This document shows, piece by piece, positions 12,700 to 56,754 of a stretch of 63,719 nt of DNA. Within the stretch, counting starts at the first letter, position 1. Each line of letters opens with the position of its first letter. Source of the stretch: a virus (Duplodnaviria > Caudoviricetes); the IMG/VR virus record IMGVR_UViG_3300032240_001660, positions 1-63,719 of that record. One strand, written 5' to 3'. Below the pieces are notes generated by a model that saw only the letters and a list, made by a program, of their open reading frames with translations, was not told the origin of the DNA and did no database searches. Made by a program: the position numbers and the translations under genes.

Positions 12700-13098
12700 T
12701 TACTCTTTAACTGGAGGTCCACCCTCTGGTTTTGGATATTTGTCTTTTACTTCTTTGATTTTTAGAAACCATTCGGATTCTTTTAAATCACCACCTTTAT
12801 CAATAGCGTGCCACAATAAATCTAGTTGTTCGAACCCATCAGGGTAATTATGGCATCTATCATAAGCATACTGATAATACTCTACTTGTGCTTTTTGGAA
12901 CGCATACTCTTTATCAATTTCTTGCTTTGTTGGAGGCATTTGGCCAGAGTCATCTTGCCAACGAGTGAAAGTATATTCACCACCTGCAACAGTTACATCC
13001 CATTTAGCACCAGGTCGCAATGTTTTGATAACAGTATCAATACCAAAAGGCATTGCAGTTTCACCTGTAAAATTCTTTGCAATTTCATCCACATTCAT
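12700..13098 (-). CDS. Tail fibre assembly chaperone-like protein (XkdW-like)
   Basis: LRPGAKW..PPTKQEI..R..YP..EQLDLLWH..IKEVKDKYPKP. Confidence 0.6.
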   Translation of the reverse strand: MNVDEIAKNFTGETAMPFGIDTVIKTLRPGAKWDVTVAGGEYTFTRWQDDSGQMPPTKQEIDKEYAFQKAQVEYYQYAYDRCHNYPDGFEQLDLLWHAIDKGGDLKESEWFLKIKEVKDKYPKPEGGPPVKE

Positions 13099-52223: not shown

Positions 52224-52372
52224 TCGACATTTTCCTTATATGATTTAAACTTATCGTAATTACGAATATCCGAAATTCTTTTTCGGCCTGCGGAATTACC
52301 CAACCATCTAAGCTGGGTACACATGGTACATCTGCAACTTCTACGAGGTTTCTTTCTTTTGAAATTTGCCAT
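52220..52372 (-). CDS. Small basic Cys-containing protein (50 aa), not in the ORF track
   Basis: MANFKRKKPRRSCRCTMCTQLRWLGNSAGRKRISDIRNYDKFKSYKENVE; AGGGG SD; GTGA overlap with the next gene. Confidence 0.7.
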   Translation of the reverse strand: MANFKRKKPRRSCRCTMCTQLRWLGNSAGRKRISDIRNYDKFKSYKENVE

Positions 52373-52390
52373 GATTTACCCCTAAATTTG

Positions 52391-52684
52391 TGGATGGTTA
52401 TTCTGTTACGAGGAAACCATCCGAAACCCTAAGCTGCGTTTAGGCTGCTAATGCGAACTGTGAGTCGTTTGCGTTTACTTTGATTTAGTTTTTACACCTG
52501 CTCTGGTGTGTTGTCCACTTCTATACTTGTTACCCTGTCGAAACTATGCAGGCCCATCAGAAGTATAATCCCGTTTCTTATGTCTCTATATGCTATGGGC
52601 ATATCGATTATACTTTTGGTGGACCTGGGGGGATTCGCACCCCCGTCCAGAATACTTTTCTAGTTGCTTCATACAACAATTCAA
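52391..52684 (-). ncRNA. ssrA: Circularly permuted two-piece tmRNA; tag ANDSQFALAA
   Basis: Acceptor piece GGGGG-TGCGAAT-CCCCC-CAGGTCC-ACCA ends at 52617; 61-nt spacer 52616-52556; coding piece starts GGGCCTG..GTTTCGAC at 52555 (G3.U70 Ala identity); tag ORF 52472-52440; 3' hairpin 52392-52422. Confidence 0.95.
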
Positions 52685-52690
52685 TAAACA

Positions 52691-52719
52691 ATTATATCAG
52701 AATTTATTTAGTGTGTCAA
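52691..52719 (-). promoter_or_regulatory. Consensus sigma70 promoter of the tmRNA with an embedded late motif
   Basis: TTGACA-cactaaataaattctga (17 nt)-TATAAT; TAAATA at 52705-10. Confidence 0.9.
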
Positions 52720-53382
52720 GTGGTATTTACCAATGTACCGATTTGTCATAGTAAGGTAATCTTGTTTTTTCTCAATGAAAATTTGAGGTAAAGTCTCACC
52801 TTCAACGGCAATTGCAATAACCAATTGTTCAATTGGCATGCCTGTTCTTTCTTCAAACATTTCGGAATAGGCAGTTGCTTGCATGAAGTAATTTTCAATG
52901 TGATTTTTATCTTTCAATCGAGAGGATGTTTTCCAATCAATAATGGATAAAACACCATCCCAAATACCAATGCAATCACAACGACCTGCAATCTTCAATC
53001 TATCTGAGAATAGTGGTTGTTCAATACCATAAATGTCACCAATATGAGTATCCAAATAAGGTCTGATATTGACAAACATTTCTTTAATGTCTGGCATCAT
53101 CGTTTGCATTTGAAGTGGTGACATTTCATTTAACAAATACTTCTCAACTGAATTATGCAACTTGGTACCACGACCAGATGCTTTACGAGAGATTTTATTT
53201 GCTTCTTCTTCACCAACTCTTTGGCGCCACTCCATAATCGCCTTCTTATTGTAAGAGGACAATACAGTAGTGATAGAAGGATAGAATTTGCCTTCAGGTG
53301 TTTTATATTTTCTACCAGATTCGGTAGTTTCGGATTCTAAATCAAAATTTAATGATTCAAGTTTAACATGATTAAAAGGCAT
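52708..53382 (-). CDS. PD-(D/E)XK exonuclease (RecB/Cas4-like superfamily)
   Basis: YPSITTVL, W..RVG.EEA, RGT..H, E..L.S...AGR.DC, IIDWKTS, YF.Q..AY. Confidence 0.88.
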   Translation of the reverse strand: MPFNHVKLESLNFDLESETTESGRKYKTPEGKFYPSITTVLSSYNKKAIMEWRQRVGEEEANKISRKASGRGTKLHNSVEKYLLNEMSPLQMQTMMPDIKEMFVNIRPYLDTHIGDIYGIEQPLFSDRLKIAGRCDCIGIWDGVLSIIDWKTSSRLKDKNHIENYFMQATAYSEMFEERTGMPIEQLVIAIAVEGETLPQIFIEKKQDYLTMTNRYIGKYHLTH

Positions 53383-54739: not shown

Positions 54740-54951
54740 CTTAGTACCCATCTTGCAACAGTTACATCACCTTTTTTAAATACATCACCGGGTTTTCGTC
54801 TTTGGCAATTTGTTTGCATTTTCGATTCAGCCTGTTTCAAAGCTTTCTGAACCGTTTCTTGTTTATCCAAGCACATTTCTTCACTTTGAAATTTTTCATA
54901 TATTGTGAAGTTGTTTGCAGATGCTAACCAAATAACTAAAACCCATTCCAT
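54736..54951 (-). CDS. Hypothetical protein (hydrophobic N-terminus, F.S.E.C motif)
   Basis: ORF within an operon-like array. Confidence 0.6.
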   Translation of the reverse strand: MEWVLVIWLASANNFTIYEKFQSEEMCLDKQETVQKALKQAESKMQTNCQRRKPGDVFKKGDVTVARWVLR

Positions 54952-54954
54952 AAT

Positions 54955-55227
54955 TTACTCTTTATCAAAAATATTAGACCATTTTGCAAGTTTAGCCATT
55001 TTAGCATTTTTGGCATTATAGACATTCATTTCATCAACTACGCCATTTGCAATTAATAACTCAATCATGCAAAGCAAATCGCCAAGTTCTTCGGTCAATC
55101 TTTGACGATTGGTTTTCGCTTCGTATTCAGAATCAAAACCAAATCGAAAACACTTGCTAATTGCTTGTGTAACTTCTGCACATTCTTCCTGTGCAATCAG
55201 TAAAATTTCATTTTGTTTATTATTCAA
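54955..55227 (-). CDS. MazG-like NTP pyrophosphohydrolase
   Basis: EECAEV.QAISK..RFG and L.EE.GDL motifs. Confidence 0.8.
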   Translation of the reverse strand: MNNKQNEILLIAQEECAEVTQAISKCFRFGFDSEYEAKTNRQRLTEELGDLLCMIELLIANGVVDEMNVYNAKNAKMAKLAKWSNIFDKE

Positions 55228-55462
55228 CTTCCATCATCCTATTAATATGTGCATCAATCAATCGGGTTCGAATCATATCAGTAATAGTTAAATGTGGCCA
55301 TTCTAATATGAAAGGACAATGATTTGTCCACCTGTTATTGTCTAAAAAATATTTAAACTCTGCGATATCTTCTTTGTTATGCGGATCAAAATATCGTTTT
55401 TGCCAAATATGATGACTTAAACGAAAACCTTTGAGATTTAGAGATTCTTCTATATGATTCAT
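55220..55462 (-). CDS. Hypothetical protein
   Basis: R.FDP....D...F.....W...CPF.LEWP motif. Confidence 0.6.
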   Translation of the reverse strand: MNHIEESLNLKGFRLSHHIWQKRYFDPHNKEDIAEFKYFLDNNRWTNHCPFILEWPHLTITDMIRTRLIDAHINRMMEVE

Positions 55463-55478
55463 TTTTTAATAAGGATAA

Positions 55479-55600
55479 GGGGCACGCTGGCTGTCTCCCG
55501 ACAGTCGCTGTTGTTTAAGAATGAGCGGACTCTGCCTATATGAGACTGACTGCTGGTTGTACCAGACTGACTGCTCGCCATAGAGTCTCGCAACTCCCCC
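55479..55600 (-). ncRNA. Candidate structured RNA, GC-rich intergenic (alternatively a 47-aa ORF)
   Basis: About 57% GC by hand count; nested stems, GGGA tetraloop hairpin, 12-nt direct repeat. Confidence 0.45.
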
Positions 55601-55614
55601 ATTTACTGGTTTGA

Positions 55615-56049
55615 TTAAGCAGCTGTTTGTGTTGGAGTAATTTCTGTCACTACCAAATCTTCGGTAGTATCAATCACTTTATCAGCAACAGGTTCTGCTT
55701 TCAAGTCTTTTAACTTCACAACAGGTGCGGTCTTAGTTTTAGCCTTGACAATCTTTGTTGATTGACCAGGTTTGAAACCAGACTTAGTAACACCATTGCG
55801 GTCTAGGTACTTCTTCATTTCATCAACATTCATTAGTTGATACGCCGTAATTTTACGACCGTCTTTGATTGCCTTAACGACAGCATTGGCATTTGTTTTC
55901 ATCAACCAAATGTAGGTTGACAAACGATACATGTGGATTTCTTTGCCAAGAGTGGCATCGATTTCATCAACAGTAACGGCTTTGCCGGATGCCATAATCA
56001 ACATCAATTTTTGAAACGGTGCAAGTTTATCAGATTTACCACGAGCCAT
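55615..56049 (-). CDS. Early protein, winged-helix-like DNA-binding candidate
   Basis: L....GK.VT..EI...L....RLSTYI..K......I..GRK...YQL; basic; C-terminus TAA. Confidence 0.6.
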   Translation of the reverse strand: MARGKSDKLAPFQKLMLIMASGKAVTVDEIDATLGKEIHMYRLSTYIWLMKTNANAVVKAIKDGRKITAYQLMNVDEMKKYLDRNGVTKSGFKPGQSTKIVKAKTKTAPVVKLKDLKAEPVADKVIDTTEDLVVTEITPTQTAA

Positions 56050-56083
56050 AATATAAAATTCCTTTTATCAGTTTAGAGATATA

Positions 56084-56112
56084 ATTGTAACATAGAACGG
56101 AACAATTGTCAA
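56084..56112 (-). promoter_or_regulatory. Early sigma70 promoter
   Basis: TTGACA-N17-TACAAT with an extended -10 TG. Confidence 0.85.
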
Positions 56113-56125
56113 GTGCCATACAGTA

Positions 56126-56377
56126 TTATTGCCTAGTATAGACTGTAAATGTTACCGCATCTTCCTTCAGGCAACCAGATTGGCGGGTTGTTACCGACCT
56201 GCCGTATTTCGCTGGACGAGGTCCACGAAACTTGAATCGCACAGGTTGCCCCACTACATTGCGAATCAATTTCCTGGTTTTTTCGGAGTATTTGGATATT
56301 GGAATATCTTTATACAACGAGGTAAACCAAGGAGGAGACCTAAAATCTTTTAGTGTATATGTTTGCGTTACACTCAT
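56126..56377 (-). CDS. Small basic hypothetical protein
   Basis: R.KFRGPR...RQS.CLK.DA..F.VY motif; ATGA overlap. Confidence 0.6.
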   Translation of the reverse strand: MSVTQTYTLKDFRSPPWFTSLYKDIPISKYSEKTRKLIRNVVGQPVRFKFRGPRPAKYGRSVTTRQSGCLKEDAVTFTVYTRQ

Positions 56378-56754
56378 GCCAATTCCTTATCACAACAGAA
56401 TTCTTTAAAATTCTCCCAACTACCAGAGAAAATCACTTCGGTCGGATTCTTCACAACCACTTTATCTTCATAAACATGGTATTCATAATCTTGCCAACAA
56501 TCTGTATCAGTCACGGCATGGATGTAGAACCCACCAACACTATTTTTAAAATTCGCAATCATTTGAGCGGCAAGACAACCCATACCATTGAATTGTTTAG
56601 CATCTTTATCTGAGTAGCCGTTTACCATTTCACCAGAACCTAAAAATTCTGCGAGTTCTGTGCCATGACCTGATGGATAACCATCGAATTGGCGATACAT
56701 GTTGATGATTGCTTTATCACCATCATACACAAAAGTTAAACTACGAGTTCCCAT
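56374..56754 (-). CDS. Conserved phage early protein (MGTR..Y.Q.DGYP family)
   Basis: MGTRS, YRQFDGYP.GHG..LAEFL, NGMGCLAAQ. Confidence 0.7.
   Translation of the reverse strand: MGTRSLTFVYDGDKAIINMYRQFDGYPSGHGTELAEFLGSGEMVNGYSDKDAKQFNGMGCLAAQMIANFKNSVGGFYIHAVTDTDCWQDYEYHVYEDKVVVKNPTEVIFSGSWENFKEFCCDKELA

Follow-up and report, generated by a model that had tools for sequence, protein, structure and literature searches.

The DNA analysed here, referred to as the window, is the whole of the IMG/VR virus record IMGVR_UViG_3300032240_001660 (63,719 nucleotides, nt), a fragment of a T4-like myovirus with a CheckV completeness of about 39%. The T4-like proteins encoded in it include baseplate wedge and hub proteins, a gp32-like single-stranded DNA-binding protein, a gp59-like loader, and DexA-like and DsbA-like proteins. 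On the minus strand, between a gene for a small helix-turn-helix (HTH) type protein, hereafter the anchor gene, and an 80-residue open reading frame (ORF), lies a 122-nt element which belongs to a family of structured non-coding RNAs and is the subject of this work. The initial annotation, made from the sequence alone, had proposed a GC-rich structured RNA at this place and on this strand, and its existence was borne out by covariation among relatives and by the match to a covariance model built without the window (63.3 bits). The GC content of the element was 57% over its 122 nt; in 120-nt segments it was 48-50% over the element vs about 28-40% in most flanking segments. The features of the locus are collected in Table 1.

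Table 1 Features of the locus and parts of the RNA element (positions in the window)
Feature	Position	Strand	Description
RNA element	55479..55600	minus	122 nt, three-way-junction non-coding RNA, long-arm form of the family
P1, 5' strand GGGG	55597..55600	minus	RNA nt 1-4; pairs with CCCC in 38 of 38 seed sequences
P2 arm	55519..55596	minus	RNA nt 5-82; four basal pairs, small internal loop, proximal and distal stems
12-nt repeat, two copies	55543-55554 and 55564-55575	minus	on both sides of a symmetric internal loop, apical hairpin between them
J2/3 single strand	55509..55518	minus	RNA nt 83-92, UUAAACAACA; most conserved part, followed by a purine
P3 hairpin	55489..55506	minus	RNA nt 95-112; G:C pair, A-C mismatch, 5 bp, GGGA (GNRA) loop
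J3/1 AGCGUG and P1 3' strand CCCC	55479..55488	minus	RNA nt 113-122; inferred 3' end of the RNA
U-rich, G-poor tract	55468..55478	minus	UUAUCCUUAUU, directly after P1
47-codon ORF	55459..55602	minus	overlaps the ORF at 55220-55462 by ATGA; judged spurious
80-residue ORF	55220..55462	minus	3' of the RNA; start 16 nt after the RNA end
Anchor gene	55615..56049	minus	predicted winged helix-turn-helix domain, then disordered Lys/Ala/Pro-rich basic linker and acidic tail
Putative sigma-70-like promoter	56084..56112	minus	TTGACA-17-TACAAT with TG, 11/12 consensus; 5' of the anchor gene
tmRNA, betaproteobacterial type	52372-52720	minus	Rfam beta_tmRNA, 121 bits; ARAGORN tag ANDSQFALAA

Fold of the element

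The covariance model R1, built from 38 other members of the family with the window excluded, matched the element end to end (E 1.6e-12) with a 61-nt insertion in the P2 loop, and this was the sole match in the window, without a second copy. The proximal stem of P2 reads GCG-A-GACUCU / AGAGUC-CGC in the window, and its distal part consists of an 8x8 symmetric loop and the apical hairpin CUGG-UACAA-CCAG. The GGGG/CCCC ends, the long stem GAGU-GCG-GACUCU / AGAGUC-CGC-AUUC and the hairpin CUGUC-GGGA-GACAG drawn in the initial annotation are all present, and the structure is kept in relatives with compensatory changes. Since P1 never varies, its own pairing is neither supported nor contradicted by covariation, and its constancy was partly forced by the way the members were collected. 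The inner GAG/CUC and CUGG/CCAG stems looked plausible by eye in relatives but were not called by RNAalifold. A switch through the alternative pairing GAGACU/AGUCUC, which had also been suggested, was not sustained: by eye, L020 and L094 have another sequence in place of the second partner and so lose the pairing.

The 12-nt direct repeat was found to be exact, with its copies 21 nt apart; at up to one mismatch it has 3 matches in the window vs 0.22 expected, a count reached in 0 of 100 shuffles. If the two copies face each other across the arm, they would make up the 8x8 symmetric loop of alternating pyrimidine-pyrimidine and A-G/G-A mismatches. Such a loop, limited to the long-arm subclade, might stack into an ordered non-canonical helix or serve as a binding site for a dimer. 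In an alignment of 12 relatives the repeat loop was present in most long-arm forms, with the 3' copy replaced in L020 and L094, and the short-arm forms of the family have no such repeat.

When folded as a single sequence, the element was not unusually stable, with minimum free energies no better than those of shuffled sequences (z -0.06 on the minus strand and -0.34 on the plus strand). The case for the structure therefore rests on comparison and not on energy. On the plus strand, positions 55488-55517, the complement of P3 and J2/3, have an intrinsic-terminator-like score, with an 8-bp stem followed by CTGTTGTTTA, and this predicted site could stop antisense transcription.

Collection and variation of the family

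Relatives of the anchor protein were found in 17 viral contigs, in 16 of which the element lies just 3' of the anchor gene; L008 lacks it, and L002 lacks its 5' half. J2/3 was identical (UUAAACAACA) in 16 of the 16 element-bearing loci found in this way. A scan of viral contigs with a conserved-core pattern, in which UUAAACAACA and GUGCCCC were fixed, gave at least 119 stretches. A structural filter which required P2 pairing left 55 distinct sequences among the matches listed, from which L123 was dropped as a chance pass; counts over the resulting 54 members, or over 53 of them, refer to the matches listed. True members scored 32-77 bits with R1, and the six weakest matches (19-25 bits) were counted as pattern-only noise.

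All members share one architecture: GGGG, P2 directly after it, J2/3, P3, a linker of 5-8 nt ending in GUG, and CCCC. Their size ranges from 63 to 151 nt, and the spread comes from the length of the P2 arm. P2 has four basal pairs, a small bulge or internal loop and a GC-rich stem in every member. P3 has a G:C pair, an A-N mismatch and 5 bp, with GGGA, GUGA or GAGA loops and sometimes loops of 5-6 nt. The sequence following the closing CCCC is U-rich and G-poor (55% U and 4% G in the first 8 nt vs 29-34% U farther out, 53 members), and at least five of these 8 nt are U in 28 of the 53.

As a check that did not depend on the pattern, R1 was run over 80 of the 373 anchor-relative loci of viral contigs, fetched by the anchor-protein profile alone. 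Matches of at least 30 bits were found at 41 loci and of 23 bits at 3, all 44 on the same strand as the anchor gene, while 36 loci gave none; in about 20 of the latter the next gene or a plain terminator follows the anchor directly. Natural variants of J2/3 in these loci are UUAAACGACA, UUAAAUGACA and UCAAACGACA.

Other relatives, called type 2, have the same P1 and P2 arm, with P3 shrunk to a mini-hairpin of 2-3 bp. They lie just after the anchor stop codon (L209, L210, L212, L214, L215, L219, L222, L225, L229, L230, L232, L192-L194 and L167). Their junction resembles U(U/G)AA(A/U)NACC, and R1 mostly misses them. The two types occur together in L110, a 157-kb record, as a tandem pair 19 nt apart (12738-12805 and 12825-12888, type 1 and type 2-like). 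Plain intrinsic terminators occupy the slot of the element in L205/L207, L211 and L233. The terminator stem of L211 begins with GGGGGAG, like the 5' end of the RNA, and the two may be evolutionarily related. A different GC-rich element of about 175 nt lies between the anchor gene and a MazG-like gene in L164 (1926-2100) and likewise in L165; it ends in a stem and U7 terminator, has no Rfam match and may be another small RNA.

Covariation and conservation

In the seed alignment A1 (38 sequences), the basal pairs of P2 were GC17/UA14/AU7, AU24/GC14, GC18/GU9/AU6/CG5 and UA28/CG8 (with two non-pairs), and P3 also covaries. A second set was defined by protein synteny, with an anchor homologue upstream, the 3' pattern, and the first GGGG after the stop codon taken as the 5' end. 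Among its 39 distinct sequences, all four basal P2 positions pair in 34, and the single positions pair in 37, 38, 38 and 36. One basal position carries a G-U pair in 22 of the 39 sequences, and the structure was assigned to the minus-strand transcript because such pairs are frequent.

The alignment A5 was derived with R1 from anchor-defined loci (27 distinct rows) and is biased towards the structure, being fitted to the model; in it 88% of the cells pair vs 41-51% when the partners were slid, and compensatory changes occur at 9 pairs vs 2.2 in shuffles, a number reached in 0 of 500 shuffles. All 7 P3 pairs of the model are changed on both sides in A5. The proximal long stem is kept in the 12 long-arm relatives, two of its pairs being compensatory in L004 and L005. 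Compensatory changes thus support P2 and P3, also in sets picked by protein synteny. The element is also more conserved than its surroundings in L003 (96.2% identity over 130 nt vs 74.5% across the 1.5-kb region) and in L011 (87.9% vs 67.6%).

The same relatives decide on the 47-codon frame, which the initial annotation had mentioned with doubt. A start codon and an open frame are kept in 16 of the 54 members, an AUG stands ahead of GGGG in 22 of the 54, and no open frame at all exists in 14 of the 54, while one whole subgroup has UCG or CCG at the position of the start codon. Member lengths modulo 3 are distributed 26/14/14. The two halves of the peptide fall in different frames in L009 and L010, an early stop occurs in L004-L007, and the short forms encode unrelated peptides. 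Searches of Pfam and PHROG with the 47-residue peptide gave no match. Because the start and frame are not kept and lengths do not change in threes, the frame was judged spurious: homologues keep the stems with covariation and not the peptide.

Presence in RNA libraries

Twenty sequencing runs hold part of the 1.5-kb stretch around the element. Fourteen of them are guessed to be DNA, most being labelled freshwater or lake, and six are lake or freshwater metatranscriptomes with small shares. Four RNA runs (X15, X16, X17 and X18) were examined as contigs at 90% likeness. In X15 and X17, which come from different studies, contigs over 55479-55553 reached depths of 213.7, 750 and 145.5 (X15) and 697.5 and 1360 (X17), depths which come from the RNA runs alone and are pooled over related phages, since the contigs branch into arms of different relatives. 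Contigs of the flanking genes were mostly 2-10 deep, with two short ones in X17 at 18.8 and 32.2.

The contigs abut adapter-like letters at 55481 in X15 and at 55479 in X17, the last bases of P1. We take these letters to be the Illumina adapter; short cDNA inserts therefore end at the last P1 bases. Given the usual stranded protocol, this suggests that the closing CCCC is the 3' end of the minus-strand RNA.

Genomic setting and distribution

The RNA starts 8-17 nt after the anchor stop codon in 36 of the 39 synteny-defined members. Seven copies lie instead in tRNA arrays, 8-14 nt before a tRNA (L024, L044, L065, L072, L073, L093 and L124), and the copy in L024 has a tRNA on either side, each 14 nt away. 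An anchor homologue was found in one of five tRNA-array records, about 6 kb away, all five being fragments. The tRNA-array copies in L072, L046, L068 and L124 have a common A/T-rich 5' flank (TTTGTTCTTTAAAAA...) about 25 nt upstream of the RNA, which could be a phage promoter with the RNA at the start of the transcript. In the window and in seven loci, a tmRNA gene lies a few kb 3' on the same strand. The gene directly 3' of the RNA varies among relatives and can be the 80-residue ORF, a MazG-like gene, a lipoprotein-like gene or a tRNA.

R1 was also run on 10 whole records. One match was found in eight of them, including a complete 214-kb genome, and two tandem matches in one; a 95%-complete record which contains the anchor gene had none. 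A scan of cellular DNA, with one genome for each of 185,579 prokaryotic species, gave 13 pattern matches of 15-25 bits, the score that the fixed pattern letters alone produce, and none was real; the pattern covered P2 arms of 20-50 nt with the exact core, so that divergent or long-arm cellular copies would be missed. As far as tested, the family thus appears to be virus-specific, found in viral contigs only. Among named phages, a DNA search with 1.5 kb around the element had no match, and the 122-nt element itself, searched at E up to 10, hit only 21 nt of a tape-measure gene of a Lactobacillus phage, by chance.

For the anchor protein, the AF2 model had a mean pLDDT of 71.8, with 85-93 per 10-residue block over residues 11-80, and the best Foldseek matches were ArsR/SmtB/MarR proteins (E about 0.01, probability 1.0). 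The predicted fold supports a winged helix-turn-helix of the ArsR/SmtB/MarR kind, in agreement with the call made from the sequence. The putative promoter 5' of this gene is the likely source of the transcript carrying the RNA. Minus-strand promoters predicted at 59225-59197, 57970-57942 and 56112-56084 have perfect or near-perfect TTGACA-17-TATAAT, and by their sequences the three probably mark where the early genes of this T4-like phage lie. The predicted 5' end of the tmRNA of the window is overlapped by a sigma-70-like promoter with a 12/12 consensus match (52719-52691). Beside the beta_tmRNA match, a permuted-tmRNA model also matches 52440-52678 with 117.5 bits, so that the tmRNA may be either a one-piece or a permuted one.

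Comparison with known RNAs

The initial annotation had placed the element in no known family, and this view held: scanned against Rfam 15, it matches no known ribozyme, riboswitch or small RNA family. Over 54800-56400 at E up to 10, there was only snoRNA and miRNA noise, located elsewhere than the element; over the whole window at gathering score, only tmRNA models matched; and three divergent members had unrelated matches of 6-14 bits, none of them recurring. The self-cleaving ribozyme classes held in Rfam gave no match at E up to 10. The papers listed by a literature string search with the junction motif were unrelated, and broader literature searches found no description of the family. It has been reported that 8,495 computational candidate structured RNAs of 29-151 nt were derived from IMG/VR, many from Caudoviricetes and freshwater (PMC10690425; Fremin et al. 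2023). The collection is the same as here, and the main-text passages of that paper do not describe the present family, which may nevertheless be among its unnamed candidates.

The RNAs C and D of phage T4 (RNAC and RNAD) are comparable in that they are small RNAs of T4-type phages in or beside a tRNA cluster (AF158101, 70908-71171, next to tRNA-Arg). Homology with them was tried and rejected, since R1 on AF158101 68000-76000 with filters off reached at best 7 bits, and not at rnaC or rnaD. The setting is shared in part: seven loci lie in tRNA arrays, and the window copy and most members follow the anchor gene.

GOLLD and ROOL are large multi-domain RNAs. Like the element they are structured, phage-borne, tRNA-associated and of unknown function; unlike them, the present family is 63-151 nt long, and it matches neither, although both are in Rfam. 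Small RNAs derived from 3' untranslated regions (UTRs) and sharing a terminator with the mRNA form a general class in bacteria. The element is like such 3' UTR-derived RNAs in following a stop codon directly, in being co-transcribed with the upstream gene and in ending at a GC helix with U-rich sequence behind it, but it has no canonical terminator hairpin and no long U-tail, and it also occurs inside tRNA arrays.

A likeness to nut sites and their boxA and boxB parts was also seen, for which comparison sequences were taken from J02459 (lambda) and NC_000913 (E. coli rrnH leader). Both have an A/C-rich single strand and, a few bases on, a short hairpin whose loop is of the GNRA type; like a nut site, the element is placed behind the first small HTH gene in an early operon. 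The junction is similar to the 3' two-thirds of boxA: the J2/3 segment UUAAACAA agrees with positions 5-12 of the E. coli rrnH boxA at 7 of 8 positions, and L079 at 12 of 13. Unlike in boxA, the 5' half (GCUC of the GCUCUU core) is not conserved here and forms part of the covarying P2 stem; unlike nut sites, the element is enclosed by P1 and P2, and P3 is dispensable in type 2. An N-like protein was not seen, though no search aimed at one was made.

Several ideas about the function of single parts were rejected. Repeated A-R-N triplets are the motif of A-rich Hfq-binding and CrcZ-like sponges, and the AAC-AAC-ARN run of J2/3, present in the pattern-selected members, is broken by the natural variants UUAAACGACA and UUAAAUGACA, with one site per RNA. 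A tetraloop-receptor motif, pairing of the 3' UUA tail with J2/3, tRNA or T-arm mimicry, an SRP-like domain and a RegB GGAG site were dropped by eye, the variants or the topology being unfit. The sponge or leader tied to the winged-helix protein, as proposed at the outset, is weakened, since 36 of the 80 anchor loci have no match and copies exist in tRNA arrays away from the gene.

Interpretation

The reading we prefer, and hold with about even confidence, is that the element of this T4-like freshwater phage encodes a small, structured non-coding RNA, which would be excised from its transcript and act through its junction. The RNA would be transcribed from the minus strand within a longer transcript, in the window probably an early one from the sigma-70-like promoter 5' of the winged-helix gene, and in other phages that of the tRNA array. 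After folding as a three-way junction with its GGGG and CCCC ends paired, the flanks would be trimmed back to this helix, and the RNA would accumulate as a discrete species. It would then act in trans via its nearly invariant junction (UUAAAYRAC, with the GUG next to P1), the most likely type of partner being a protein or RNA of the RNA or translation machinery of the host or phage. A discrete RNA gene was favoured because the spacing among tRNAs is tRNA-like, the ends are closed by a helix, each genome usually carries a single copy, the RNA is independent of any one neighbour gene, a tandem paralogue pair exists and the 3' boundary in RNA libraries is defined.

Several observations weigh against such a gene. 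No partner, target or seed match was found for the RNA, and the complement of J2/3 occurs 15 times in the window vs 18.8 expected, without enrichment as an antisense target. In the larger set J2/3 and GUGCCCC look invariant because the search pattern required them, and single-sequence folds of the family had z of -0.06 to -1.4 vs shuffles. In L001 the element has a lower identity than its flanks (78.9% vs 87.4%), because of an insertion in the P2 arm. In the libraries, the 100-fold excess overstates the abundance of the RNA owing to pooling across phages that share sequence words; the contigs show no 5' end of the RNA; unprocessed transcripts exist, as a 327-nt contig of 32-fold depth spans the 5' part of the RNA and the gene before it in a relative; and contigs of X16 and X18 have no cover on the element, an absence which is no evidence either way. 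The U-rich tract after P1 and the plain terminators in the same slot fit termination in cis at least equally well.

Because of this tract and these terminators, a conditional-terminator or riboswitch-like role stays in play. Control of transcription in cis, by a terminator or attenuator sensing a ligand or protein or by a nut/boxA-like signal modifying the polymerase, is a tentative but serious alternative, distinctly less probable than a discrete RNA gene. Here P1, forming before the U-rich tract, would halt the polymerase and gate read-through to later early genes or tRNAs. The composition of the 3' flank agrees with this, as do the simple intrinsic terminators in the same slot (L205/L207, L233 and L211 with its GGGGGAG stem), but P1 has 4 bp and the U-tract is interrupted (UUAUCYUU). 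A terminator scan called none on the minus strand at the element, and the window has no convincing downstream terminator. A transcript terminated here and then trimmed would have just such a 3' end, at the base of P1. The three-way junction with its conserved bases, J2/3 and J3/1 between covarying stems, the GNRA loop, the variable peripheral arm and the one tandem pair look like an aptamer, for which P1 and the U-rich tract might act as expression platform. The downstream genes are heterogeneous, tRNAs included, unlike the functionally coherent genes of a riboswitch regulon, and the L024 copy sits with equal spacing between two tRNAs. In favour of an antitermination signal are the position about 480 nt after a consensus early promoter and behind a small HTH-type gene, as nutR stands after cro, the boxA match of UUAAACAA, and a GNRA-capped hairpin 2-6 nt later, as boxB follows boxA; against it stand the boxA 5' half, which lies in P2 and is not conserved, and the reduced P3 of type 2. 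One specific form, a new sensing aptamer whose closing helix and U-rich tail make a conditional terminator under the control of a metabolite or of a protein from phage or host, seems to us rather unlikely, with a new class of self-cleaving ribozyme for transcript processing as a close second.

An element for processing or stability in cis (a nuclease-resistant fold, a nuclease entry site or a new self-cleaving ribozyme) is likewise improbable. The element always stands between parts of a transcription unit (gene and gene, tRNA and tRNA, or gene and tRNA), the RNA-library boundary falls exactly at the end of P1, and a conserved unpaired core is typical of catalytic RNAs. However, the 10 whole records have at most one site or tandem pair each despite many intergenic junctions, close relatives lack the element, and no known ribozyme family was matched at E up to 10. 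The remaining two readings are essentially excluded. The exact 12-bp direct repeat, its copies separated by two helical turns and next to a gene of DNA-binding type, could mark an origin or two half-sites, 21 bp apart, of an operator bound by the winged-helix protein, and such an operator pair had been among the first suggestions; but the repeat is limited to the long-arm subclade, with its second copy replaced in L020 and L094, and is lacking in the short forms. Moreover, what is conserved is base pairing, with compensatory changes and G-U pairs specific to one strand, and copies in tRNA arrays have no such gene nearby, which leaves a DNA-level role very improbable. A 47-residue peptide is still less credible: the open frame with its ATG and ATGA overlap, and the AUG before GGGG in some members, are outweighed by the loss of start and frame in most members, the indels not in threes and the lack of Pfam or PHROG matches.

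Significance

With the RNA described here, T4-type phages have a second family of small structured RNAs, unrelated to RNAC and RNAD. According to a 2010 review (PMC3014915), no T4 riboswitch or trans-acting small RNA had been functionally characterised. RNAC and RNAD (species 1 and 2 RNA) are given there, and in a 2022 study (PMC9697503), as RNAs whose function is still unknown. With dozens of natural variants, clear covariation, a 63-nt minimal form, presence/absence pairs and a tandem pair, the family lends itself to structure probing, to pull-downs of partners and to genetics. If a sensor or a ribozyme proved true, it would be a new class, and an aptamer-terminator would be a device timing the read-through from immediate-early to delayed-early genes or tRNA arrays in a T4-like phage lineage. 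The placement among tRNA genes and near a phage tmRNA suggests that the RNA may be linked to RNA processing or translation while abundant freshwater bacteria are infected.

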